DNA from: an uncultured Bacilli bacterium
GTDB taxonomy: Bacteria > Bacillota_I > Bacilli_A > RF39 > UBA660
Assembly: GCA_949425635.1 (NCBI GenBank)
Contig: CASPWD010000005.1
Coordinates: 28,552 to 92,551 of the forward strand
DNA: 64,000 bases
Direction of reading: 5' to 3'
The notes under the pieces are model-generated. The model made no database searches. It was not told the origin of the DNA and saw nothing but the letters and a program-made list of their open reading frames with translations. The position numbers and the translations under genes are program-made. Position 1 is the first letter of the stretch; each line of letters begins with the position of its first letter. Shown here in pieces: positions 35,093 through 59,687 of the stretch.

Positions 35093-35929
35093 TCATCTCC
35101 TTAATATTATTACGCCATCACTTTTTTCTTCTTCTGGTTCTAGCGCACTTCTAAATCTTTTTGCTTCATAATTTTTAAAAACTTTATCTACTAAACTTAA
35201 ATTATCGATTTCACTTCTTGGATTACTATTTCCAATATCATAAAGGTAGGCCATATAAATTTTCTTAACTCTATCTAGAAATTTATTCATCAAATCCCTA
35301 TACTTTATAAGTCCATCTTTACCATACATCATTCCAATATAATCAGATATATTAGATAAAAACATATAATCAAAATATTCATCTAACTCTAAATTTTCTA
35401 AACTACAAGTAATATGTCTAATTTTTAATCCACTCAACTTATCTTTAACTAAATTATAACTATCTTCATTTAAATATAAATTCTGCCATACTTTACTATC
35501 TGGATTAAAATACTTACGATTAAAATAATGAGAATTTTTTAAGCTTCTTCCATCTTTATTAAACTCTTGTAATTTATCTAACCAAAACATTCTACTTTCA
35601 ACTGGCAAATCCAAACTGGAAATAATATCATAATCAAAGCTTATCTTTGTATCATAAAGAAGGAAATTAACAAAATCATTAAAATCTAACTTTTTTAATG
35701 CTGATAATTTCAAATCCATGTACTTCTCAGTAAGTGGATTAATATCAAACGTTGTAACATCAAGTCCACCTCTAGCTACTATATTTAAAATATGATCAGT
35801 TGAACCAGTAACTGTTATTACTTTTGTACCAGTTAAATCTAAATCATCCATATATCCTGCGATATTCTCCGTTGTAAAAGGATAAATACTATCAAATCTT
35901 TCCATAACATTTACCACTTCCTTTTGCAC
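35093..35929 (-). CDS. DUF3419 / BtaA-like SAM-dependent (3-amino-3-carboxypropyl-transferase-like) protein
   Basis: 'TKVITVTGSTDHILNIVARGGLDVTTFDINPLTEKYMDLKLSALKKLDFNDFVNFL' matches the BtaA-family pattern as I remember it (xVLxIxSxGxNxL....V.AVD.NP.Q..LLELK.AA...L....F..F). Recognised from memory only. Confidence 0.5.
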   Translation of the reverse strand: MQKEVVNVMERFDSIYPFTTENIAGYMDDLDLTGTKVITVTGSTDHILNIVARGGLDVTTFDINPLTEKYMDLKLSALKKLDFNDFVNFLLYDTKISFDYDIISSLDLPVESRMFWLDKLQEFNKDGRSLKNSHYFNRKYFNPDSKVWQNLYLNEDSYNLVKDKLSGLKIRHITCSLENLELDEYFDYMFLSNISDYIGMMYGKDGLIKYRDLMNKFLDRVKKIYMAYLYDIGNSNPRSEIDNLSLVDKVFKNYEAKRFRSALEPEEEKSDGVIILRR

Positions 35930-37352
35930 ATAAGAACTTAGTTAACTTTTTATCTTTTAATACTTCGTCAAGTGGATTATCTCGTAAAGATATATCAGAT
36001 ATACAGGTCTTATCTACTTCATGTACCCAAGGACATGGACTTACTTGACCAAAATTGTTTATATATAAAAACTTATCTCCAGCTGGACATCTATGAATCG
36101 TAATTGGTTGATGTCCAAAGTTATAATTCACTACAATTTTTCCTTTATATTTACTTCTAAGATCATCGAGTTCACTTATTAAATCTTCTGTATTTCTTTT
36201 CTTAAATAAACTTTTATCTTGTCCTTCAACAGGTTCCATAATAGAAAATATTATTTCATCAGCTGCTAAGCTACTAGAATCTCTTATTAATCCTTCCAAA
36301 TTTCTCTCATTATTAGCATGTATTACAGCTCCGACTCTTACCTTATTTGTTGAATTCTTTAGTAACTCAATTCCCCTAATTGTTCTTAGATAAGTATCTT
36401 TACCTCTAACTGCTTCATGTTCTAACCTATTTCCATCTAAACTAACATGAATCATTTTCAGTTTAAGTTCATTAAGTAATCTTACCTTTTCTTCAGTAAG
36501 AAGTGATGCATTAGTAGAAATATCTGTTATTAATTTACTACTTGCATATCTTAAAATATCTATAATATCTCTTATAATAAAAGGTTCTCCACCAGTTATC
36601 TTTAGATGTCTAAAATCATGTGTACAAAGCTCATCAATTATATGAAAACATTCTTCTGTAGTTAGTTCATTCGTAATCTTACTATTCTTATGGCAAGAAA
36701 ATATACAATAAGAACAACCATAATTACATTTATGAGTTATCTCCCAAATTGCCTTACCTCCACCATCATTAGGTAACGTAAATTTACAATCCATTCCATT
36801 AATAAAGCTTTGTATTAATTCCATATCTACGTTTGTATCATTATTAACAACTAAAACATTATTGGCTTCGAGTCTACTCCTATCAAATTCTTGTAATTTG
36901 AATCTTTGTAATATTTCCTCTTTTGATAGATCGCTATTCCCAAGTCTTTCTAATCTCTTATTAACACTAGTATCAACATAGATTATTTTCTCAAATAAAC
37001 TTTCCAAATTATCATTAAATATTAATGCCCAATCAACTAAAATTGTTTTATTATCAAACTCTTCAATATACATCATAAAATATCTATAAAGAACTTCCTT
37101 ATATCTATTCATATAATCTTCATTTGAATAAATAAACTTATTTAATATTCTAGAATCAACTTCATTATATAAATTTAATTCTGGTATAGCTCTCTTTAGC
37201 TCATTAACATAACTTTCATTCTTAAATAGACTTCTTCTAAATTCATCGACATCTATATAAATAAAATCTCTATTATCAAGCATTATCTTTCTAGCAATTG
37301 TTGTTTTACCAGCAGACATCCCACCAGTTATTCCTATTAATCTATTCTTCAT
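35892..37352 (-). CDS. Fusion protein: dephospho-CoA-kinase-like P-loop NTPase + radical SAM/SPASM domain
   Basis: N-terminal 'LIGITGGMSAGKTT' (CoaE-like Walker A) spans about 190 aa. Then 'CNYGCSYC' (CxxxCxxC) and 'ITGGEPF'. The C-terminus 'HRCPAGDKFLYINNFGQVSPCPW...C...C....C' is SPASM/twitch-like. I place the start at MKNRLIG. Confidence 0.75.
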   Translation of the reverse strand: MKNRLIGITGGMSAGKTTIARKIMLDNRDFIYIDVDEFRRSLFKNESYVNELKRAIPELNLYNEVDSRILNKFIYSNEDYMNRYKEVLYRYFMMYIEEFDNKTILVDWALIFNDNLESLFEKIIYVDTSVNKRLERLGNSDLSKEEILQRFKLQEFDRSRLEANNVLVVNNDTNVDMELIQSFINGMDCKFTLPNDGGGKAIWEITHKCNYGCSYCIFSCHKNSKITNELTTEECFHIIDELCTHDFRHLKITGGEPFIIRDIIDILRYASSKLITDISTNASLLTEEKVRLLNELKLKMIHVSLDGNRLEHEAVRGKDTYLRTIRGIELLKNSTNKVRVGAVIHANNERNLEGLIRDSSSLAADEIIFSIMEPVEGQDKSLFKKRNTEDLISELDDLRSKYKGKIVVNYNFGHQPITIHRCPAGDKFLYINNFGQVSPCPWVHEVDKTCISDISLRDNPLDEVLKDKKLTKFLCAKGSGKCYGKI

Positions 37353-38688
37353 ACCAACACATCCCATACTTTATTGGAACAAAAGCAGCTACTTTCATTT
37401 CCTTATCTTGATTGTTATATTTCATCCAATCTACATTATCTGTAATAATTTCGTACCCCTCTTTTTTTAAATTTTTAAGTAATAATTCTATTTCATGTTC
37501 TAAGTCCTTATTTTCTATATTAGGTTTATTTCCATGAATATACTGTGTCTTATTAATTACATTTCCGTTCTCTTCATAAACTGGAGTTCCATATCTATAA
37601 GCTAAGTAATGTAAACGAAGTTCGTGAGGTTTAATACTTTTAAGTAACTTTCTTGTTTTCTTTAAATCTTCTACCTTTGTTCCAGGATAATCTAAAATAA
37701 AACTAGTTCTTACTCTATAACCCATATCTTTTACTTCTTTAATTATCTCTTCTACTCTTTTAACATCCATCTCTTTGTTCATCATTTTTAATATCTTTGG
37801 ACTACCAGATTCTAAACCAAAATGAATCCATCGAAATCCAACTTTATACATTTCTTCTAACATTTCTGCATCATAACACTTAATGCTACACAAAGCTCCA
37901 AATAAACATTTTATCTTTCTTTTTCTAATAAGATTACAAATTCTCATCATACGTTTTTTATCAACAGTTGCATTATCATCTAAGAATATTATTTGCTTCG
38001 CTTTATATTTTTTTATCAATATTTCTATTTCATCTACAACTTCTACAGGTGACTTACCACACCACTTTCTAAAATAGTAAGGTGTTGTACAAAACTTACA
38101 TCCACCAATACATCCTCTAGAAGTGATTATCGTTCTTGTCTCCATATACTTAGAAATATCCACGAATTCTCTATCTATCATTGGAAGTTTATTGTAATTA
38201 TTTGGCATAAAGACTTGTTTAGTAATGACAACTTTCTCATTATCTTTATAAACAATATTAGGAATTTTATTTAACTTGTCCTTATCAAATACATTTTCTA
38301 TAACATCATTAATTAATTCTTCTGCAATTCCCTTTATAACTACATCAACACCATTTTCTAAAAACTTACTATAAGAGTATGTTGATGTTTTACCAACCAT
38401 AATGACTTTACTTTCTCTATTTAGATTCTTGATTATTTCAAATATATTATTTATTGCTTCACTTGTATGTAGTGGTAACTGATAGTCATAAACAAATACA
38501 ATAACATTTTTACTTTCTAGATATTCATTTATATTATTTTCCATTCTATTAACATCCATATCGATAACTCTTACATTATTAAATCTTTCTTTAACTACTG
38601 TAGCTATTTGTAGAACATCAAGTGGTTCAGCTAAGATTGTTTCATTTGTAAAAGGTTTATTAGGTGGGTTTACTACTAAAATATTCAT
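37342..38688 (-). CDS. B12-binding-domain radical SAM enzyme (class B-like)
   Basis: N-terminal Rossmann-like region of about 170 aa, then 'CIGGCKFC' and a TIM-barrel region. 448 aa. Confidence 0.75.
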   Translation of the reverse strand: MNILVVNPPNKPFTNETILAEPLDVLQIATVVKERFNNVRVIDMDVNRMENNINEYLESKNVIVFVYDYQLPLHTSEAINNIFEIIKNLNRESKVIMVGKTSTYSYSKFLENGVDVVIKGIAEELINDVIENVFDKDKLNKIPNIVYKDNEKVVITKQVFMPNNYNKLPMIDREFVDISKYMETRTIITSRGCIGGCKFCTTPYYFRKWCGKSPVEVVDEIEILIKKYKAKQIIFLDDNATVDKKRMMRICNLIRKRKIKCLFGALCSIKCYDAEMLEEMYKVGFRWIHFGLESGSPKILKMMNKEMDVKRVEEIIKEVKDMGYRVRTSFILDYPGTKVEDLKKTRKLLKSIKPHELRLHYLAYRYGTPVYEENGNVINKTQYIHGNKPNIENKDLEHEIELLLKNLKKEGYEIITDNVDWMKYNNQDKEMKVAAFVPIKYGMCWYEE

Positions 38689-50595: not shown

Positions 50596-51279
50596 TTATA
50601 GTAAGTTATAATCTTTATCATATAAGTAAATCACACCATGGGACTTTATATTAAAGGAAGTCTTGTTTGGTCTTATGGAATCTCTAGTGGTACCCGGAAA
50701 AGCATATTCATAATTTGGTAATTTTTCATCATAATAATGGTTTATATGGACTATAGCTTTAACTTGTGGATTTTTAAAAAGATAATCAAGTAAAGGAGCA
50801 TTCAAAGTTGCCTTTTTATCAACTACCTTGATAGTATGATTATCATGATTGACATTATTTACAATTGTATATTCCAAGAAATTCTCTTTACCACGAATAG
50901 TGGTAATAAAATTATTATCTTTAGTACGAATAGCAACACTACCAAATAGATATTTATCGCCATAGATATTTTTAGACATTAGTGGTTTATATTGTTCTAA
51001 ATATTTAAAATATAAATTTAAATCTTCCTTATTATATAAATCTTCTTTGTGAGTATTATTTTTTATACTTGTTTTATAGTATGTATCTTTATTAGCTAAT
51101 TCAACAAAAGTTTGTTCATTATCAATTTCAAAAATACTCTTTTCTTTAGTTAAACAGTACATTTTGTTTTGACATTCAATAATTAAAAATTGATATTTAT
51201 TCTTAAGTAAATCTTTATATAGATTATCAATTGTTGGATTGCTTAATTTTTTAGTGTTAATATGTTGATAATTAATCAT
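50596..51279 (-). CDS. Hypothetical protein (possible class II aldolase/adducin-like fold)
   Basis: 'FGSVAIRTKDNNFITTIRGK' weakly resembles the 'GN.S.R......ITPSG' motif. Very tentative. Confidence 0.25.
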   Translation of the reverse strand: MINYQHINTKKLSNPTIDNLYKDLLKNKYQFLIIECQNKMYCLTKEKSIFEIDNEQTFVELANKDTYYKTSIKNNTHKEDLYNKEDLNLYFKYLEQYKPLMSKNIYGDKYLFGSVAIRTKDNNFITTIRGKENFLEYTIVNNVNHDNHTIKVVDKKATLNAPLLDYLFKNPQVKAIVHINHYYDEKLPNYEYAFPGTTRDSIRPNKTSFNIKSHGVIYLYDKDYNLL

Positions 51280-52012
51280 TTGTAAACATCTCACTTACTA
51301 GTTTTGCTGCAATATCTTCTTTATTCTGAGCTTCTATATAAGTATTATCTTTCTTAATAATGAAAGCTTTATGGTGACCTATTCTTATATTACTTAAATC
51401 ATTAGCAACCACTAAATCACAGTTATTTTTATCACGAAGTTTAGTGGCGACATTAATTAGTTCTTTCTCACTTACATTATCTAGTAATTTGAAACCAACA
51501 AGATAAGTTTGAGGACTAAGATTCTTTATTAAAGATATTATTTTAGGCGTTCTTTTTAATTTAATAATAAGATTATCTTCATAAGAAGATATTTTGTTTT
51601 CTGTAAAAATATCTTCGTTTGTACAAATTAAATTGCAGACATCTTGATTTATATTATCATTTATCCTTTTAGCAAGTTTTTCTGCTGTTGTTACAAAGTC
51701 TACTGTATAATCTGAGACTGCCATAGAATGAATGAAATAATTTATATCTTCTTTTTGAAGCAATTCTTCAATTGTATTTTTCAGTTCTGCAGTATCAGCT
51801 ATTTCAATTATTTCTATTTTATTATTTGGATTTGGTTTTACTGAGTTTTTAGAACATACATAATAGATTTTTTCAATTTGGTCCTCTTTTTTCTCTAGTA
51901 TTTTACTAGTAATGGTACATCCTAATTTTCCTGAACTACTATTGGTGATTTTTCTAACATTATCAATTTTTTCACTAGTTCCTCCAGATGTTATAATTAT
52001 TTTCTTTTTCAT
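51272..52012 (-). CDS. coaB: Phosphopantothenate--cysteine ligase (stand-alone CoaB)
   Basis: 'IIITSGGTSEKIDNVRKITNSSSGKLG' matches the CoaB signature 'ITAGGT.E.ID.VR.I.N.SSGK.G'. Confidence 0.85.
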   Translation of the reverse strand: MKKKIIITSGGTSEKIDNVRKITNSSSGKLGCTITSKILEKKEDQIEKIYYVCSKNSVKPNPNNKIEIIEIADTAELKNTIEELLQKEDINYFIHSMAVSDYTVDFVTTAEKLAKRINDNINQDVCNLICTNEDIFTENKISSYEDNLIIKLKRTPKIISLIKNLSPQTYLVGFKLLDNVSEKELINVATKLRDKNNCDLVVANDLSNIRIGHHKAFIIKKDNTYIEAQNKEDIAAKLVSEMFTND

Positions 52013-52563
52013 TATTCTTCTCCTTCTAAAAGTTCTTTTATTTTATTAATTATTGTTTCCTTTTTAGCTAATTTACCTACTGCTTGATATCCACAAGCAA
52101 GATTTCCTACTATAGGTTCAACAAACTGATATCCATATTCTCTTAACTTTTGAATATTTGCTTGAACAATTTTATTATTGTACATTTCATTATTCATAGC
52201 TGGAGCAAAAATTACTGGTGAAGGTGTGGCCATTAAAGTAGTTGATAGCATATCATCAGCAATACCACTTGCAACCTTACCAAGTATATTTGCTGTAGCT
52301 GGGGCAACTAGGACAAGATCCGCTTTTCTTGCTAAACTTATGTGTTCTACTTCAACATGTTCCTTTTTCTCGAACATATCTGTTACTACCTTATTCTTAG
52401 AAAGTGTCTCTAAAGTTAGTGGCGCTATAAATTCGCAAGCATTTTTAGTCATTATACATTCAACATTAGCCCCTTCTTTGGTAAGATAAGAAATAAGTTC
52501 ACATACTTTATAGCAAGCTATTCCTCCTGTTATACCTATTAAGATATTTTTCTCTTTTAACAT
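52012..52563 (-). CDS. coaC: Phosphopantothenoylcysteine decarboxylase flavoprotein (stand-alone CoaC)
   Basis: 'ILIGITGGIACYK' and 'APAMNNEMY'. I place the start at MLKEKNIL behind an AAGGA RBS. Confidence 0.8.
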   Translation of the reverse strand: MLKEKNILIGITGGIACYKVCELISYLTKEGANVECIMTKNACEFIAPLTLETLSKNKVVTDMFEKKEHVEVEHISLARKADLVLVAPATANILGKVASGIADDMLSTTLMATPSPVIFAPAMNNEMYNNKIVQANIQKLREYGYQFVEPIVGNLACGYQAVGKLAKKETIINKIKELLEGEE

Positions 52564-52653
52564 AAATATTCCTTCTTTCACTTATAATTTTATGATTTGC
52601 TTGTTGATAAGTAAAATATATAAATGTTATAATGTTGATAAGGAGTACTTATT

Positions 52654-53526
52654 ATGAATATAGATTTAGAATTATATAGAGTTTTTTATGTTGTTGCTAA
52701 ACATAAGCACATGACAAAAGCTAGTAAAGAACTACATATATCACAGCCTGCTATTTCACAGTCAATAAAAAAATTAGAAGAACAACTAGATGGAACTTTA
52801 TTTTTAAGAAGTAATAAAGGAATGGAATTAACTGAAGAAGGTAGAATGTTTTATGAATATGTTAAAGGTGCTTTGGAGTTAATTAATAACGCTGAAAAAG
52901 AATTCACTTCATTTAAAGATTTATCTAAAGGAGATATAAAAATAGGATGTTCAGCTACTTTAACAAAATTAGTTCTTATGGATGTTTTAAAAGATTTTCA
53001 TAAAGAATATCCTAATATAAATATTCAGATTACTAATGATTTGACAAGTAATTTAATTAATGATTTAAAATTAGGTAAATTAGATTTTGTTATATTTAAT
53101 GAAAGCAATGTAAAAGAAAAGAACGTTGATTTAAAGAAAATTAAAGAACTAAAACAAGGTTTTGTATACAATTCTGACTATTTTAATGATGATATTTGTG
53201 ATTTTATGGATTTAAATAATTATCCATTAATTTTACAAAAGGTAGAATCAAATAGTAGAAAGTTACTTGATTATATAGCTTTAAATAATAATGTAAAATT
53301 AATCCCTAAAATGGAAGTTGTTAGTCAAGATTTAATTACAGAGTTTGTTAATATTGGACTTGGAATTGGATTTGTTATAGTTGATTTAGCTAAAAGAAAT
53401 TTTAGTAATTTAAAAGAATTACGTATTAATGATAGAATCCCTAATATAAAGGTATTTTTAGCAACAAATAAGTCAGTGTTACCAACACATGCTAGTAAGA
53501 TGTTTATAGATTTCTTATCCAAATAA
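52654..53526 (+). CDS. LysR-family transcriptional regulator
   Basis: HTH 'MTKASKELHISQPAISQSIKKLEEQL'. Divergent from the coaC operon. Confidence 0.85.
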   Translation: MNIDLELYRVFYVVAKHKHMTKASKELHISQPAISQSIKKLEEQLDGTLFLRSNKGMELTEEGRMFYEYVKGALELINNAEKEFTSFKDLSKGDIKIGCSATLTKLVLMDVLKDFHKEYPNINIQITNDLTSNLINDLKLGKLDFVIFNESNVKEKNVDLKKIKELKQGFVYNSDYFNDDICDFMDLNNYPLILQKVESNSRKLLDYIALNNNVKLIPKMEVVSQDLITEFVNIGLGIGFVIVDLAKRNFSNLKELRINDRIPNIKVFLATNKSVLPTHASKMFIDFLSK

Positions 53527-53549: not shown

Positions 53550-53987
53550 TTACAAAAATCGTTTTAACTTTTCAACAGCTTCTTCTTGCATATCAACAAA
53601 TTCTTGAACTAACTTATTTACTTGCTCGTCTGTATCATTGTTATTTAATAATTTTCTTCCTTCTATAATTCCCATATTAGTTCCTTGTAATAATAACTCT
53701 GCTATTTTAGAATTACTATCATCCATTAAAGTTTTCATTTCAACACTATACCATGTCATTGCTTTATTCATTGCATTTGTTTCATGAGGCTCTCCAGTAC
53801 TATATTCAGGATATAACTCACAAATTTTATCAGATAAAGATTTATAATTATTATATTGTTTATCTAATTCTTCTTTTAAACTATCGTCTTTTACTTTGTC
53901 TAGTACGTAGTGAATGGCGTCCCTTCCCATACAAGCACCTTTATTTAGTTCATCTAAAACATTTACTTCAATTTTCTCTTCATTCAT
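53550..53987 (-). CDS. Helical-bundle hypothetical protein
   Basis: 145 aa, predicted all-helical. No catalytic motif. Confidence 0.3.
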   Translation of the reverse strand: MNEEKIEVNVLDELNKGACMGRDAIHYVLDKVKDDSLKEELDKQYNNYKSLSDKICELYPEYSTGEPHETNAMNKAMTWYSVEMKTLMDDSNSKIAELLLQGTNMGIIEGRKLLNNNDTDEQVNKLVQEFVDMQEEAVEKLKRFL

Positions 53988-54030: not shown

Positions 54031-54615
54031 TTATGCAATATTTTTAGATTCTATTAGCTCTTTAATTTTCTTAGCTACTTTGCCGAAAAATGGGTTTTTA
54101 GAAAGTTCATCAAAACTTATCCAATTGTAATCTCCTGATTCAGACGAATCAACTTTAATATCTGTAATTTCATCTATTGTAAATAAATATCTAAAATCAA
54201 AATGATAATGTGATGGTAAGTCTAGTCTTTCATTATAAGGAATTTTATGAGTATCAATATCAAAAGGGACTAAAGTGTCTTCTGTAATTTTTAATAGTTT
54301 GAAGTTACTAAGACTTGTTTCCTCCTTAACTTCTCTAATTGCAGTTACTAATGGGTTTTCATCTGTAGGATCAATATGTCCTCCTGGATATAAATACTTT
54401 TTCATATCTTTGTGATAAATCATTAAAAATTTTTGCTCTTTTATTGAATATATAAAACCACTTGCACAAATGTGTCCATCAAAATTATTCCAATCAGTTA
54501 ACTCTTTACTAGTATGTTTTGTCAAATTACTTAATAGAATTTCTAATCTAGATTGCTCATTTGGAAATAGTTCTAAGTATTTATTAACAGCATTCATTAT
54601 AATTTCTTTTTCCAC
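54031..54615 (-). CDS. Nudix hydrolase
   Basis: Nudix box 'PGGHIDPTDENPLVTAIREVKEETSL'. Confidence 0.75.
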   Translation of the reverse strand: MEKEIIMNAVNKYLELFPNEQSRLEILLSNLTKHTSKELTDWNNFDGHICASGFIYSIKEQKFLMIYHKDMKKYLYPGGHIDPTDENPLVTAIREVKEETSLSNFKLLKITEDTLVPFDIDTHKIPYNERLDLPSHYHFDFRYLFTIDEITDIKVDSSESGDYNWISFDELSKNPFFGKVAKKIKELIESKNIA

Positions 54616-54618
54616 TTT

Positions 54619-55122
54619 TTAATCACCTTTAGTATTTTTATAATTTATATAATGTGGTACATTTTTGTACTCTTCATAATATTTTTCAATACCCATTTCT
54701 TTTATCTTTTGAGTACCATCTAACCACTTTTTAATAGTTGTCTCTTTGAAGTTTGAGTTATTTACTTTTTGGCATGGAAATTCTGGACATTCAGCACAAA
54801 AATCTATATTATGTTCCTTCACACATTCTGGAATAATACAACCTTTAATACTACATCCACTAGACCCACCATTACGGCATCCGCCACATTTAGGATTAGC
54901 AAATTTTTTTAATCGTTTTTGAAATATTCTAAATTCATCTAATCTATCTCTGTACTGGGCTTTTAAATTTTTATCTAAAAACTCTTCGTGACCTTCTAAT
55001 AACTTTAATAGCTCAGTAGCATGTAAACTTATCTCACCATATTTACATCCAGTACATGTACTACAAAACATAGAACAAGGAGCTACTGATTTTAATATCT
55101 TTTCACTTATCCTTTTTTCCAT
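54619..55122 (-). CDS. DUF3795-type Cys-rich protein
   Basis: Multiple Cys clusters: 'CSMFCSTCTGC', 'CGGCRNGGSSGCSIKGC' and 'CAECPEFPC'. Confidence 0.55.
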   Translation of the reverse strand: MEKRISEKILKSVAPCSMFCSTCTGCKYGEISLHATELLKLLEGHEEFLDKNLKAQYRDRLDEFRIFQKRLKKFANPKCGGCRNGGSSGCSIKGCIIPECVKEHNIDFCAECPEFPCQKVNNSNFKETTIKKWLDGTQKIKEMGIEKYYEEYKNVPHYINYKNTKGD

Positions 55123-55154
55123 AACAACCTATCCTTTAAATATTATATCATAAA

Positions 55155-56546
55155 CTATGCAACTAAATCTCTTACTAAACTTTTTTTCTTAGCAATTCTT
55201 TCTTTATTTATTGCTCCTGTACCTAATGATATAATTTCACAATTTGTTTCATATTCTAACCATCTTAAATATTCTTTTACATACTTATTAAAATGAATAT
55301 CATCAATCATACCTTTATAATGATGGAAATCATAATCTAGATGTTGAAAGAAATTAAGATACAATCCATAAGGGTGATTCACTCTACAATTATTTTTTAA
55401 TTTACTTATATCTAAATCAAATACTCTTCTTTCCATCTTTGTAACTGTCGTCTGTTCTGATAAATCATGAATATATTGTTCTCCCTTATCTTCGTAAAAT
55501 CTATCTAATGGTGGTAAGTCTAATAATAAAGATTGATAAGATTTTTCACCTTTACATAATAGTCTCTCTAGTTCACACGCTTGAACAAAAGTAACTAACT
55601 CTGGATGATCTATATAATAAGATGCCTTAGTACCAAATAATTGTTTTAAGTAAACTTCATCAACACTTAACATTAATTCTAATATATAATCTTTATTTTG
55701 AAATGCATCTGTAGCATAAAAATCTAAATCTCCTTTAAACGGATATGTTCTAAGCATTGAAGAAATATTTATCTGTGACCAAGTAAGTTCCTGACCACTA
55801 CCATAAGCCCCTGTATAAATGAGTTCTCCTGCTTTAGTAACATTACTTATTCTAATTGGAAAAGGTCTCATTACCATTATTGTCCCAAGTAAGGCTTCTC
55901 CAGGTATTCCACTATCTGCAAGTAATTGTGTAGTTGAAACATTTCTACTTGTTACATAAGGATAATTGCCACTAAAATTAAGCGACAAATCACATCCTTG
56001 AGCTCCTTCTAATACAACAAACTCTTCACTTCTATTTAAATGACTATGTACTCTGTCTAACCATTCATCGTTGGTACATCGAACCGCATTTTTATAAGTC
56101 TGAAAAAATTCTAAATTAGGATCTCTCATTATTTTTTCCATACTTACAGCACCACAACCTTTGAATGTCGAACCACTTTTTATATGAAGGTGTTCGTATT
56201 CTTTATGTCTATCACAAATTAAAGGCACCATTTCATGAACATATATCTTTCTATCACCTAAATATGGTTTGGCCATTTCATATTCTCTTTTAAATACTTC
56301 CATATCAATTGCAGATCCAGGTCCTATAAATAATTCTGTATTTGGATTAACAATCGATACAGGTATATTTCTAAATACTAAAGATTTTCCATTATGAGAT
56401 ACAAAAGTGTGTCCTGCATTGGGCATACAATTAGTAATGGCAGCTCCAAGATTAATCGTAGAATCAGTAGCTAGTTCACCAACTACTTTGGCTTTTCCAC
56501 AGCTACCAGCTGCACCATCAAGAACGGAAATAACATTTCTAATCAT
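55155..56546 (-). CDS. Divergent adenylosuccinate synthetase (PurA)-family protein
   Basis: 'NAGHTF' aligns with PurA 'NAGHT', and 'VLEGAQGCDLSLNFSGNYPYVTSRN' with '[22 protein letters not shown]'. The P-loop 'GDEGKGK' is replaced by 'GAAGSCGKAK'. 463 aa with extra C-terminal sequence. Confidence 0.6.
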   Translation of the reverse strand: MIRNVISVLDGAAGSCGKAKVVGELATDSTINLGAAITNCMPNAGHTFVSHNGKSLVFRNIPVSIVNPNTELFIGPGSAIDMEVFKREYEMAKPYLGDRKIYVHEMVPLICDRHKEYEHLHIKSGSTFKGCGAVSMEKIMRDPNLEFFQTYKNAVRCTNDEWLDRVHSHLNRSEEFVVLEGAQGCDLSLNFSGNYPYVTSRNVSTTQLLADSGIPGEALLGTIMVMRPFPIRISNVTKAGELIYTGAYGSGQELTWSQINISSMLRTYPFKGDLDFYATDAFQNKDYILELMLSVDEVYLKQLFGTKASYYIDHPELVTFVQACELERLLCKGEKSYQSLLLDLPPLDRFYEDKGEQYIHDLSEQTTVTKMERRVFDLDISKLKNNCRVNHPYGLYLNFFQHLDYDFHHYKGMIDDIHFNKYVKEYLRWLEYETNCEIISLGTGAINKERIAKKKSLVRDLVA

Positions 56547-56655
56547 AATGACACCTTCTTTAATTTTACTTTCTATTATAGCAAAAAAGACTACATATGT
56601 AGTCCATAATTTATAATTATTTTATTTAATTTAAAATACCTTACTTAACCTATCT

Positions 56656-57207
56656 TTATGAGTTTATTTTATTATCATTAATTTCATTATTATTTATAAC
56701 TTTATACCATACTTGTAAAATATCTTCTTGTTCTCTAATCACTTTATCTAGAACTAATTTATTTTCGAAAAATTCTCCTTCAAAGAGGTTGATTCCTTTA
56801 TTTAAAACATATGGATTGTAGTTGATAATAACCTGATTAACAATGGTTTCTTTCATAAATAATGTATTAATTGTAGCTCCACCAGAAATAAAGACATTCT
56901 TAATATTTTTTTCTTCACATAATTTATAGAATTGTTCTAGTGAATTGACTACAAATACATTAGAGTAAGGATATTCTATGTTACTTTTCGAAAATATTAT
57001 TACAGTAGTATCCTTTAAATCGTTTATATAATCACTCCCCCAAGACATTACATTTTTAAAAGTTGTGTTTCCCCAAACTAAACAATCATAATTTTTTAAA
57101 AAATCTAACATTATTTGATAATTTCTTTCAAGTAAAAAATCTTCACTACCATTTTCGTAAGCTATAAGTCCATTTATTGAACTGGCCATTTCTATTGTTA
57201 TATTCAT
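56656..57207 (-). CDS. RibD C-terminal / dihydrofolate-reductase-like family protein
   Basis: 183 aa. 'MASSINGLIA' and 'FISGGATINTLF' are typical of the RibD_C family. Confidence 0.55.
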   Translation of the reverse strand: MNITIEMASSINGLIAYENGSEDFLLERNYQIMLDFLKNYDCLVWGNTTFKNVMSWGSDYINDLKDTTVIIFSKSNIEYPYSNVFVVNSLEQFYKLCEEKNIKNVFISGGATINTLFMKETIVNQVIINYNPYVLNKGINLFEGEFFENKLVLDKVIREQEDILQVWYKVINNNEINDNKINS

Positions 57208-57335: not shown

Positions 57336-58250
57336 TTACAAATCTAAATTTGTATCTATGTATTCTTGGATAAATTTACGAGGAGCTGTTGTTAAGAAGT
57401 GCTTATTATATACGATATTAATTTCTACTGTAGGAAGCTCTTCCTTAATATTTAATATTTCTATTTCACCATTTTTCGTTTCGTGTTCAACTAAATTCTC
57501 AATTACATATCCAATACCTAAGTCTTTTTTTACAGCACCTATAATCATCTCGCTCGTATGGATATTTATTACGTTATCAACATTTACTTTATTAGCTGCT
57601 AATACTTCATTAAGATCAGTACGATTAGCTGTACCTGGAATTGGAAGAATCAATAAATAATTTTTTAAATCGTTAAGTTTTTTGATTTTCTTAATATCAA
57701 TAGTTGTTGTATCTTTTTTAGCAATGAAACAATACTTTACTTCAGCTAGTTTTTTTATAATTACGTCTTCGTCTGTTTTGATATCTATAGGAGAAGTGTC
57801 AATGATAAAGTCTACTTTATGGTTATCTAAAAGACTTGTTAAATTTGTAGTCGATCCAGTTATAATAGTTACTTCAATGTTAGGAAACTTTTTATGGAAG
57901 TCAATTATTTTATCAAATAAGAAGAATGAACCGATATTTGATGGCATGCCGATTGAAAGTTTACCTCGTTCTAAGTTTTCTGTTTCAAGCATGTTTCTTT
58001 CAGCAATTATTAAATTGTTATATGACTTTTCAACGAAATATAAAAGTTCTTTCCCTTTTTCTGTTAATTCAACACCATTTAAATTTCGATAAAATAATTT
58101 AGTAGAAAGTTCTTCTTCTAGTTTCTTTATGGCTTTACTTACAGCTGGTTGAGAAGTATAACTCATTCCTGCAGCTTTAGAAATACTACCACATTTTGCT
58201 ACATCATAGAAAGTTTTATATAAGTTAAGATTAACATTTGTTTTATACAT
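57336..58250 (-). CDS. LysR-family transcriptional regulator
   Basis: HTH 'GSISKAAGMSYTSQPAVSKAIKKLEEEL'. Confidence 0.85.
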   Translation of the reverse strand: MYKTNVNLNLYKTFYDVAKCGSISKAAGMSYTSQPAVSKAIKKLEEELSTKLFYRNLNGVELTEKGKELLYFVEKSYNNLIIAERNMLETENLERGKLSIGMPSNIGSFFLFDKIIDFHKKFPNIEVTIITGSTTNLTSLLDNHKVDFIIDTSPIDIKTDEDVIIKKLAEVKYCFIAKKDTTTIDIKKIKKLNDLKNYLLILPIPGTANRTDLNEVLAANKVNVDNVINIHTSEMIIGAVKKDLGIGYVIENLVEHETKNGEIEILNIKEELPTVEINIVYNKHFLTTAPRKFIQEYIDTNLDL

Positions 58251-58379: not shown

Positions 58380-58949
58380 ATGGAAAAATATTTATTTGAT
58401 AATGGATTCTTTGAATTTGTACATAGTGAAGAGGATTTCATAATAGATGGCAATACTAAAAGAATTAAAAGAAACTTTGTTAGAAGACCTCCTGGAATAA
58501 GAGCATTAATTGTTGATAAAGAAAGTAAAAAAATACTTTTTTCAAGAGAATTTAGATATGAATTAAATGATTGGGATTTAAGATTACCTGGGGGAAAAGT
58601 ATTTGATAGTTTAGATGATTATAAAAGATCTTTAGAAAAAGATGATGTTTTAGACCATGTAGAAATGACTGTACCAAAGGAGGTTCTTGAAGAAATAGGA
58701 CTTATTGTAAATAATCCTAAATTAATTAAAGTTTCAAAGGATGGTGCTGGAGTTATATGGGATTTATATTATTACGAAATTACTGATTATAAAATAAGTA
58801 AAGATGGTCCACAGCTTGAAGAAGATGAGGTAATTAATGGATATGTTTGGAAATCTTTTGATGAAATAATTGATTTATGTAATCAAAATCTTATTCATGA
58901 AGATAGAACTGTTGGAGTTTTATTAACATATATTTTAAATAATAGATAA
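58380..58949 (+). CDS. Nudix-family hydrolase (ADP-ribose pyrophosphatase-like, partly degenerate box)
   Basis: 'LPGGKVFDSLDDYKRSL...PKEVLEEIGL'. Confidence 0.55.
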   Translation: MEKYLFDNGFFEFVHSEEDFIIDGNTKRIKRNFVRRPPGIRALIVDKESKKILFSREFRYELNDWDLRLPGGKVFDSLDDYKRSLEKDDVLDHVEMTVPKEVLEEIGLIVNNPKLIKVSKDGAGVIWDLYYYEITDYKISKDGPQLEEDEVINGYVWKSFDEIIDLCNQNLIHEDRTVGVLLTYILNNR

Positions 58950-58997: not shown

Positions 58998-59687
58998 TTA
59001 ATTATTCGTATTCTCTAGTTCTTTTAAATATTCTTCAAGATATGAAATCCACTTTGGTTCGTTTTCTTCTAAAAATAAATTGTATAGAAAATCAACCATT
59101 ATTGTTTGTCTATTTGTGGCCTCGCAACGACCTGACTCTGTCAACATAAGATATTTTAATTTTAATAGTTTTTCGAAACAATGAATAACTCCTGAATCGG
59201 CACATAGTTTGTAATTATCAACATTTACTTCTTTATTAGGAAAAATTTCTTTGTCAAAGAAAGGTTTATTATGTGATAACTCATAAGTACATGTTCTTAT
59301 TATAGCAGTTGCACCAATACCATCACACATGTCAGCATCAGAAACAATTTGTCCTTCTAAAGTAGTCGGTCTTAATCCTTGTAATAATTTGCGATAACCG
59401 ATATGACTTATTTCTTTTAAAACTATTTTTTGAGTTTTTTTATCTACACCAACAGTATCCATAATATGTTTGGCATTGGGTAAATCTTTTTCATTTTCTA
59501 AACCAAATAATTTGTAATCATCGACATCATGTAATAGTGCTATTAACAGGGTTAGTTCAACATTTGCATTCTCTTTTATAGCAAATGATGATGCTAGATT
59601 TTCTACACGCTTTATATGACTTACATCATGCCCTGACTTATCATTACTTAAAAGCTCGTATACTTTTTTTCTAATTTCATCTATCAT
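58998..59687 (-). CDS. HD-domain metal-dependent phosphohydrolase
   Basis: 'GHDVSHIKRV' and 'ALLHDVDD'. Confidence 0.7.
   Translation of the reverse strand: MIDEIRKKVYELLSNDKSGHDVSHIKRVENLASSFAIKENANVELTLLIALLHDVDDYKLFGLENEKDLPNAKHIMDTVGVDKKTQKIVLKEISHIGYRKLLQGLRPTTLEGQIVSDADMCDGIGATAIIRTCTYELSHNKPFFDKEIFPNKEVNVDNYKLCADSGVIHCFEKLLKLKYLMLTESGRCEATNRQTIMVDFLYNLFLEENEPKWISYLEEYLKELENTNN

Follow-up and report, generated by a model that had tools for sequence, protein, structure and literature searches.

Phage PurZ, also called DgsS (phiVC8, PDB 6FM1, 6FKO and 6TNH; S-2L, PDB 7ODX; NCBIfam NF038379), is an ATP- or dATP-dependent N6-succino-2-amino-2'-deoxyadenylate synthase, and PurZ0 (Gordonia phage Archimedes, PDB 7VF6; Ghobes) is a GTP-dependent PurZ variant found in actinophages. 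The same superfamily includes the adenylosuccinate synthetase PurA, which in Escherichia coli (b4177; TIGR00184) is approximately 430 amino acids (aa) long with the motifs GDEGKGK, GATTGRRRR and TKLD and different extra segments. The archaeal PurA of Pyrococcus horikoshii (PH0438, PDB 2D7U and 5K7X; PRK04293) is short and uses inosine monophosphate (IMP) and GTP, 5K7X being ligated with GTP, IMP and hadacidin. In the latest phylogeny the PurZ group consists only of phage sequences and four archaeal sequences (Poubanne et al., PMC12884076), and in the literature searched natural synthesis of 2-aminoadenine (Z) is a phage trait. Here we describe a chromosomal gene of gut bacteria whose 463-aa product is probably of the PurZ type. 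It is located in a 64,000-nucleotide (nt) stretch from an uncultured Bacilli bacterium (GTDB lineage RF39, UBA660; GenBank contig CASPWD010000005.1, positions 28,552 to 92,551), hereafter the window, and belongs to a bacterial family of which no description was found in the searchable literature. The gene and the parts of its product that are discussed below are as follows.

55155..56546, minus strand: PurZ-type ligase gene, 463 aa; Pfam PF00709 Adenylsucc_synt, 90.2 bits; short archaeal/phage architecture plus an insert
56487..56507, minus strand: P-loop G14-S15-C16-G17-K18-A19-K20 of the PurZ-type protein, from alignments
55482..55781, minus strand: helical insert, approximately residues 256-355, from alignment and structure model
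55425..55451, minus strand: aspartate-binding loop T366-T-V-T-K-M-E372-R-R, from alignment with S-2L PurZ
55341..55358, minus strand: phosphate-donor base pocket L-N398-F399-F-Q401-H, from alignment with S-2L PurZ

Assignment of the 463-aa protein

Of the NCBIfam profile hidden Markov models (HMMs), that of PurZ (NF038379) scored highest with the 463-aa protein at 187.3 bits, followed by archaeal PurA at 145.7 bits and bacterial purA at 99.5 bits. All of the canonical PurA equivalog models scored below their cutoffs (TIGR00184, 99.5 against 395.6 bits; NF002223, 75 against 402 bits; PRK04293, 145.7 against 368 bits). A sequence search of the PDB gave phiVC8 PurZ (6e-31) and S-2L PurZ (2e-29) as the best matches, with weaker matches to Pyrococcus PurA (2e-23), PurZ0 (3e-21) and E. 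coli PurA (approximately 2e-8), and identity to phage PurZ was 24-35%. An AlphaFold2 model built from 52 sequences had a predicted local distance difference test score (pLDDT) of 91 and a predicted template-modelling score (pTM) of 0.90. When this predicted model was compared to known structures with Foldseek, the target template-modelling scores were 0.83-0.85 for PurZ/DgsS and 0.85-0.89 for the short Pyrococcus PurA, 0.79 for PurZ0, and only 0.62-0.67 for long PurA. The top match in the viral structure library BFVD was annotated as N6-succino-2-amino-2'-deoxyadenylate synthase. The protein has the compact architecture of the archaeal enzyme, whose HMM scored second best, but lacks its Asp.

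Residues G14-S15-C16-G17-K18-A19-K20 align column for column with E. coli G12-D13-E14-G15-K16-G17-K18, placing Ser15 at the position of the catalytic Asp13, the residue next to the purine 2-position; the catalytic Asp has therefore been replaced by Ser. The G-S-C-G-K motif around Ser15 aligns in turn with G-S-T-G-K of phage PurZ. Asp13 is conserved in 99% of PurA sequences, and Ser is found in all 147 phage PurZ and PurZ0 sequences (Poubanne et al., PMC12884076). In our PurZ-type alignment 180 of the 184 rows have Ser in this column, and GSCGK[AG]K is present in 73 of the 75 full-length members of the bacterial family described below. A first-pass annotation of the window had reported a PurA-family protein without the canonical GDEGKGK and its catalytic Asp, and had left it to a careful alignment to show whether that Asp was conserved after all; it was not, and the claim stands. 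The superfamily blocks that the annotation had listed as retained are also present as PNAGHT, LEGAQG and YPYVTS, all of which have counterparts in E. coli PurA, as does the overall two-step ligase chemistry of the superfamily. Among the full-length family members PNAGHT is found in 72 of 75 and LNFFQH in 65 of 75.

The remaining active-site residues were mapped using a HMMER alignment to 7ODX. In S-2L PurZ, the PurZ-specific residues S23, T273 and Q308 are in contact with the substrates, the donor (ATP or dATP) has its adenine bound by N305, F306 and Q308, and V241 and the insertion after it crowd the sugar C2' (Czernecki et al., PMC8342488). S23 corresponds to S15, T273 to T366, R280 to R373, and N305/F306/Q308 to N398/F399/Q401, so that every PurZ-specific substrate-contact residue tested is present (S15, T366, Q401, N398, F399 and R373). 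R240/V241 correspond to R232/I233 in the P-I-R-[VI] motif region, which is followed by a PurZ-like loop; Ile rather than Val after P-I-R is a difference from phage PurZ. The aspartate loop has TTVTK, as in PurZ, where GATTGRRRR stands in E. coli PurA. By their donor motifs the groups of the 184-row alignment fall cleanly apart, the motif being TKLD in E. coli PurA, TF.D in PurZ0-type rows, NF.N in classical PurZ, and NF.Q in the bacterial family, its sisters and S-2L PurZ. The segment equivalent to the GTP-specifying (N/T)KxD motif of PurA reads LNFFQ, with Q401 in place of the Asp that PurZ0 keeps (TF.D/SFAD). Since the motif is of the S-2L type, exactly matching its adenine-binding N-F-x-Q pocket, the donor nucleotide should by homology be ATP or dATP, not GTP.

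On balance, we regard the 463-aa protein as PurZ-type, a chromosomal member of the ATP-type PurZ clade rather than a housekeeping adenylosuccinate synthetase, because of its Ser in place of Asp13, the TTVTK loop, the NF.Q pocket, the top HMM, PDB and fold matches and a nested position in the tree (below). With phage PurZ it has in common the short fold, the catalytic-position Ser, TTVTK, P-I-R-[VI] with the C2' loop, and the clade; with PurZ0 it has in common the Ser, a TTVT loop, the short fold and a C-terminal GTG motif, although PurZ0 falls on another branch and its donor motif is of the GTP type. HMM, PDB, fold, residue and tree evidence alike bear out the first-pass view, in which the protein was set apart from canonical PurA and compared with PurZ.

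Family, tree position and internal insert

A word-indexed search returned 1194 homologs, of which the best 120 were 449-488 aa long and at least 61% identical; the few named proteins among these 120 were labelled 'adenylosuccinate synthetase' or 'hypothetical protein', and the assignment given here corrects the former label in the public records. In a collection of species-representative genomes 94 stretches encoded a relative, and 80 of these loci were analysed, giving 81 loci with the window. Nearly all of the 80 came from uncultured gut metagenome-assembled genomes (MAGs) labelled Bacilli, Tenericutes or Mycoplasmatota, and the carriers include Candidatus Onthousia, Candidatus Ventrenecus and one closed 1.5-Mb chromosome. 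Loci L006, L010, L028, L033, L037, L039, L049, L063, L067 and L075 are titled 'uncultured Muribaculaceae bacterium' despite grouping with the Bacilli MAGs, and are probably mislabelled submissions. The window sequence itself is present in mouse-gut metagenome runs. The PurZ-type gene was matched only in mouse-gut DNA runs, as contigs, and was not found in RNA runs.

The gene was intact in 75 of the 80 species-level loci. Two loci carried one frameshift each and three were incomplete, two of them cut by contig ends and the other (L074) with a gene that stops approximately 110 nt before the end of the locus. Relative to the closest relatives, the ratio of nonsynonymous to synonymous substitution rates (dN/dS) was approximately 0.09 overall and 0.10-0.17 within the insert. 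The PurZ-type gene is stably maintained in uncultured gut Bacilli and is under strong purifying selection, insert included. With E. coli PurA as the query, only the family itself was matched in the window and 0.83 Mb of related loci, and no canonical PurA was found there; this is weak evidence, because 0.83 Mb is a small and biased part of about 80 genomes.

For the phylogeny, an exhaustive search of representatives gave 2102 matches, 69 of them below 1e-30, and IMG/VR was scanned with the hand-made degenerate pattern E-x-TTVTK-xx-RR-[VI]-F, which yielded at least 120 loci; a recognisable Ser P-loop was present in 90 of the 106 open reading frames (ORFs) among the matches listed. Trees were built with FastTree (184 rows) and with IQ-TREE under LG+C20 (61 rows). 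Both were rooted on E. coli PurA, the only outgroup, so that the root is a single long branch and archaeal PurA is not represented. Of the tree of the PurA superfamily with PurZ and archaeal forms that the first-pass annotation had proposed, the part with PurZ was thus obtained, and it nests the 463-aa protein within the ATP-type PurZ clade. PurZ0-type rows made up one main branch in both trees, and the other held all reference PurZ, the viral contigs and the family of the 463-aa protein (support 93/91 in IQ-TREE and 100 in FastTree). In the IQ-TREE analysis the family was monophyletic (95/58). Its nearest sisters, P0122 and P0127, bear the insert (100/98), the next, P0123, P0125 and P0126, have a short insert (100/99), and the one after that, P0124, has none (100/100).

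The enclosing clade of 23 rows (99/94) also contains the viral sequences L104, L166 and P0131. PurZ is flanked on the contigs of these three by HNH endonuclease, RusA-like resolvase, exonuclease and SSB-like genes, and P0131 is from a 54-kb contig that also encodes a PD-(D/E)XK nuclease, a helicase, ThyX and a primase-helicase; the nearest viral relatives thus sit in phage replication modules. Genes next to those of the inner sisters P0123 and P0129 look cellular. The simplest reading of the tree is that a bacterial lineage captured a phage purZ, which would then have gained the insert, although the transfer may have run the other way, from cell to phage.

Two further features of this part of the tree were observed. 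The near sister P0126 (372 aa) reads GDCGKGK, with Asp back at the catalytic position, and PNADHT for PNAGHT, and has EIIPHDGEVRR where the TTVTK loop has been lost; this copy seems either degenerate or re-purposed. An ORF of 154-188 aa lies directly downstream of PurZ, and is translationally coupled to it, in each of the three nearest viral relatives (L213:8893-9459; L104:876-1340, minus strand; L166:1142-1618). These ORFs are mutually homologous (BLASTP 2e-17 to 6e-7) with a common G[FY]RF.GN motif, and had no Pfam or PHROG match; they may encode an undescribed partner of this PurZ sub-clade.

The extra length of the protein had been placed at its C-terminus by the first-pass annotation. Alignment located it elsewhere: the real C-terminal end carries a GTG motif and can be aligned with those of PurZ0 and PurA, and the additional sequence is an internal insert of approximately 100 residues (about 256-355) between the ELTW strand and the aspartate loop. 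This insert is missing from PurZ, PurZ0 and PurA. It was confidently helical in the full predicted model, and when modelled alone it gave a helical bundle (pLDDT 89.6, pTM 0.83) for which a fold search found no relative in the PDB (best E-value 3). The motifs YLKQ.FG and ALELERL.YK are conserved within it.

The insert has been spliced in immediately ahead of the aspartate loop, whose sequence in the family is TTVTK-M-E-R-R. All 75 members and the two insert-bearing sisters carry Glu372, and every other row has V, P, L, I or T there; the position is that of E. coli R304, the aspartate-binding R303 being one residue earlier. P-loop residue 19 is Ala in 13 of the 15 family rows sampled and Gly in all 156 rows outside the family and its sisters. 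Unlike phage PurZ, then, this is a cellular chromosomal gene kept across a bacterial lineage, with a helical insert, Glu372 and Ala19, and without MazZ, DatZ or DpoZ partners. The insert and Glu372 remodel the aspartate loop, and may act as a lid, as a regulatory module or as a change of specificity.

Predicted reaction and competing explanations

By homology to phage PurZ, O6 of a guanine nucleotide would be phosphorylated with ATP or dATP, dGMP being the likeliest substrate and GMP a possible one, and L-aspartate would then attack to give N6-succino-2-amino-(deoxy)adenylate, which PurB and kinases of the cell could turn into Z nucleotides. We consider this ATP-dependent conversion of a guanine (deoxy)nucleotide to N6-succino-2-amino-(d)AMP to be the probable activity of the protein, if by no means a secure one. 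Several points weigh against it. The PurZ model NF038379, although the best-scoring family, gave 187.3 bits against a curated cutoff of 300. The aspartate loop has been remodelled by Glu372 and the insert, which could mean a different co-substrate. No partner of the phage Z cluster (MazZ, DatZ, DUF550 or DpoZ) was recognised near the gene with Pfam or PADLOC, and the only frequent neighbour in the family, a Ppx/GppA-like phosphatase (36 of 81 loci), is missing from the window. The product of the Z cluster was toxic on expression in E. coli (PMC8342488), and lineage-wide conservation among housekeeping genes fits a core metabolic enzyme better than an enzyme with a toxic product.

That last point leads to the strongest of the alternatives, that the protein is the adenylosuccinate synthetase of its lineage, a PurZ-type gene having replaced canonical PurA and now joining IMP (or dIMP) to aspartate with ATP instead of GTP. 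These gut Bacilli, whose genomes are small, would have obtained the gene from a phage or inherited it from an ancestor of the short archaeal type. Broad conservation (75 of 80 loci intact, dN/dS approximately 0.09), a place among housekeeping genes without a universal partner gene and, weakly, the lack of a canonical PurA in the small, biased sample of loci are all in keeping with it; the chemistry is identical to that of PurA except for the residue near purine C2, and constitutive Z synthesis is expected to be harmful (PMC8342488). It is nevertheless at odds with the active site: Asp13 is 99% conserved in true PurA and Ser is the PurZ hallmark, yet 73 of 75 members keep Ser even though the near sister P0126 shows that reversion to Asp can happen, and neither the ATP-type pocket nor the loop of PurZ type beside the sugar C2' has been lost. 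We therefore judge it unlikely, while giving it serious weight. A less probable alternative is that the insert and Glu372 have altered the chemistry of a PurZ-derived ligase, changing either the nucleotide or the amine co-substrate (to another amino acid, an amine or ammonia) to yield an undescribed purine derivative. Here the evidence is Glu372 itself, which replaces the hydrophobic residue or Pro of all other PurZ-type rows beside the equivalent of the aspartate-binding R303, and which arose together with an insert that lies directly before the aspartate loop and has no known fold relative; the prevalence of Ala at residue 19 in the family points the same way. However, T366, R373, R374 and the other residues that form the aspartate and nucleotide pocket do not vary and are of the PurZ type, and no linked tailoring enzyme recurs across the family, so that we consider altered chemistry rather improbable.

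Two explanations draw on the surroundings of the gene. The PurZ-type enzyme, a RibD_C-like reductase, a DUF3795 protein and a Nudix hydrolase could form a dedicated operon for nucleotide or nucleoside modification under LysR control. The genes share a strand and have short downstream gaps, the two loci most closely related to the window (L001 and L002) preserve the arrangement, and (d)GMP might in theory be made from (d)GTP by a Nudix enzyme, which is the role of MazZ in phages (PMC8342488). Yet only 3 of the 81 loci have these neighbours beside the gene, with identities of 86% or more among the three, a terminator-like hairpin separates the RibD_C and PurZ-type genes, and the LysR gene is co-directional; a dedicated operon is thus very improbable. 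Least credible of all is that the gene is a passive phage remnant, prophage cargo with no function in the cell. Its nearest relatives outside the bacterial group are phage genes and two loci are frameshifted, but no phage genes were seen among the window ORFs scanned, purifying selection is strong and includes the insert, the gene is intact in 75 of 80 loci from different species, and the family has fixed novelties of its own in the insert and Glu372; selection and conservation contradict a remnant.

A more far-reaching and distinctly speculative extension of the PurZ-type assignment is that a phage PurZ has been domesticated by this entire lineage of gut Bacilli, whose normal physiology would include the synthesis of Z nucleotides from guanine nucleotides. 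The DNA, RNA or nucleotide pools of the cells would in that case contain Z or its succino precursor, whose role could for instance be that of a partial DNA modification, of a signal or of a route between G and A nucleotides, and the insert and Glu372 would supply a control that the phage enzymes are without. If cells do run PurZ chemistry, this would bear on DNA modification, on the control of nucleotide pools and on phage-host conflict in the gut. If the protein is instead an AMP enzyme, a Ser active site can serve ordinary AMP synthesis, which would change the prediction of Z-genomes from the Ser signature.

Genes around the PurZ-type gene

The four minus-strand ORFs of the first-pass annotation (the Nudix, DUF3795, PurZ-type and RibD_C genes) were confirmed in the window, as were the Pfam assignments of the RibD_C, DUF3795, Nudix and LysR genes that it had placed nearby. 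The features flanking the PurZ-type gene are as follows.

52654-53526, plus strand (opposite): second LysR gene, from Pfam
53550..53987, minus strand: gene for a DUF2383-like four-helix protein, the last closely spaced gene downstream; Pfam DUF2383, 25.8 bits, below cutoff
54031..54615, minus strand: Nudix hydrolase gene, 3-nt gap after the DUF3795 gene; Pfam NUDIX, 43.5 bits
54619..55122, minus strand: Cys-rich DUF3795 gene, downstream neighbour, 32-nt gap; Pfam DUF3795, 48.9 bits
56588..56605, minus strand: terminator-like hairpin and T-run between the RibD_C-like and PurZ-type genes, from a terminator scan
56656..57207, minus strand: RibD_C/DHFR-like reductase-fold gene, upstream neighbour; Pfam RibD_C, 36.7 bits
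57336..58250, minus strand: LysR-family regulator upstream of RibD_C; Pfam HTH_1 and LysR_substrate

The operon proposed in the first-pass annotation is doubtful. The DUF3795, Nudix and DUF2383-like genes, and only these, are closely spaced downstream of the PurZ-type gene, with gaps of 32, 3 and 43 nt. Upstream, the 109-nt gap to the RibD_C gene contains one of the four terminator-like sites returned by the scan, against 0.8 expected. The LysR gene at 57336-58250 is co-directional rather than divergent, and no evidence was found that it controls the PurZ-type gene. In an all-against-all clustering of ORFs, the RibD_C and DUF3795 protein clusters were each present in 3 of the 81 loci and the Nudix and DUF2383-like clusters in 4 of the 81, and the order RibD_C / PurZ-type / DUF3795 / Nudix was found only in the window, L001 and L002, the PurZ-type proteins of the latter two being 86-88% identical to the 463-aa protein.

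The flanking proteins matched only generic or uncharacterised families. The nearest structures to the RibD_C-like protein were 3KY8, YyaP and dihydrofolate reductase (DHFR), and the nearest to the Nudix protein was the uncharacterised 3FCM; PADLOC defence models run on seven local proteins gave nothing meaningful. The suggestion that this neighbourhood points to a nucleotide-modifying pathway therefore lacks support at the level of the family, given unconserved neighbours, generic matches and the PADLOC result. The flank of RibD_C, DUF3795, Nudix and LysR genes is a local arrangement of one species group, not a conserved pathway.

Other candidate partners were considered and rejected. The Nudix hydrolase was dismissed as a general partner, since few of the 81 loci have a Nudix gene nearby. 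A single neighbour is frequent, the gene for a divergent Ppx/GppA-family phosphatase (298 aa; Pfam 32 bits; TIGR03706 42 bits, far below cutoff; for example L025:2321-3217), which lies directly upstream on the same strand in its 36 loci; its absence from the window and its limited occurrence rule it out as a partner here. Its position may be inherited synteny, because the carriers L004, L046, L055 and L065 group together in the sampled tree. Neighbours in other loci, read from translations, resemble release factor, S-adenosylmethionine synthetase, pyruvate formate-lyase and the ATPases of ABC transporters. A second, weak Nudix gene (58380-58949, 21.7 bits) and an HD hydrolase gene (58998-59687) are located within 3.5 kb of the PurZ-type gene, and no specific link of either to it was found; the HD protein was rejected as a DatZ analogue since it belongs to the YpgQ/YedJ-like HD family.

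The window has a G+C content of 24-34%. Outside the four-gene locus, 20 larger ORFs were scanned and looked like ordinary chromosomal content, with no phage or purine genes among them; they include a class I Glu/Gln-type tRNA synthetase, a tRNA methyltransferase with MnmA-type domains, a dephospho-CoA kinase domain, glycosyltransferases and radical-SAM enzymes. Two adjacent genes at 51272-52012 and 52012-52581 resemble, from their translations alone, the split halves of CoaBC (phosphopantothenoylcysteine synthetase/decarboxylase), and a 232-aa ORF without a Pfam match lies just downstream of them at 50596-51294. At 35892-37367 an N-terminal domain resembling dephospho-CoA kinase (CoaE) is fused to a radical-SAM domain in one protein, and this gene is adjoined by one for a B12-binding radical-SAM enzyme at 37342-38688.

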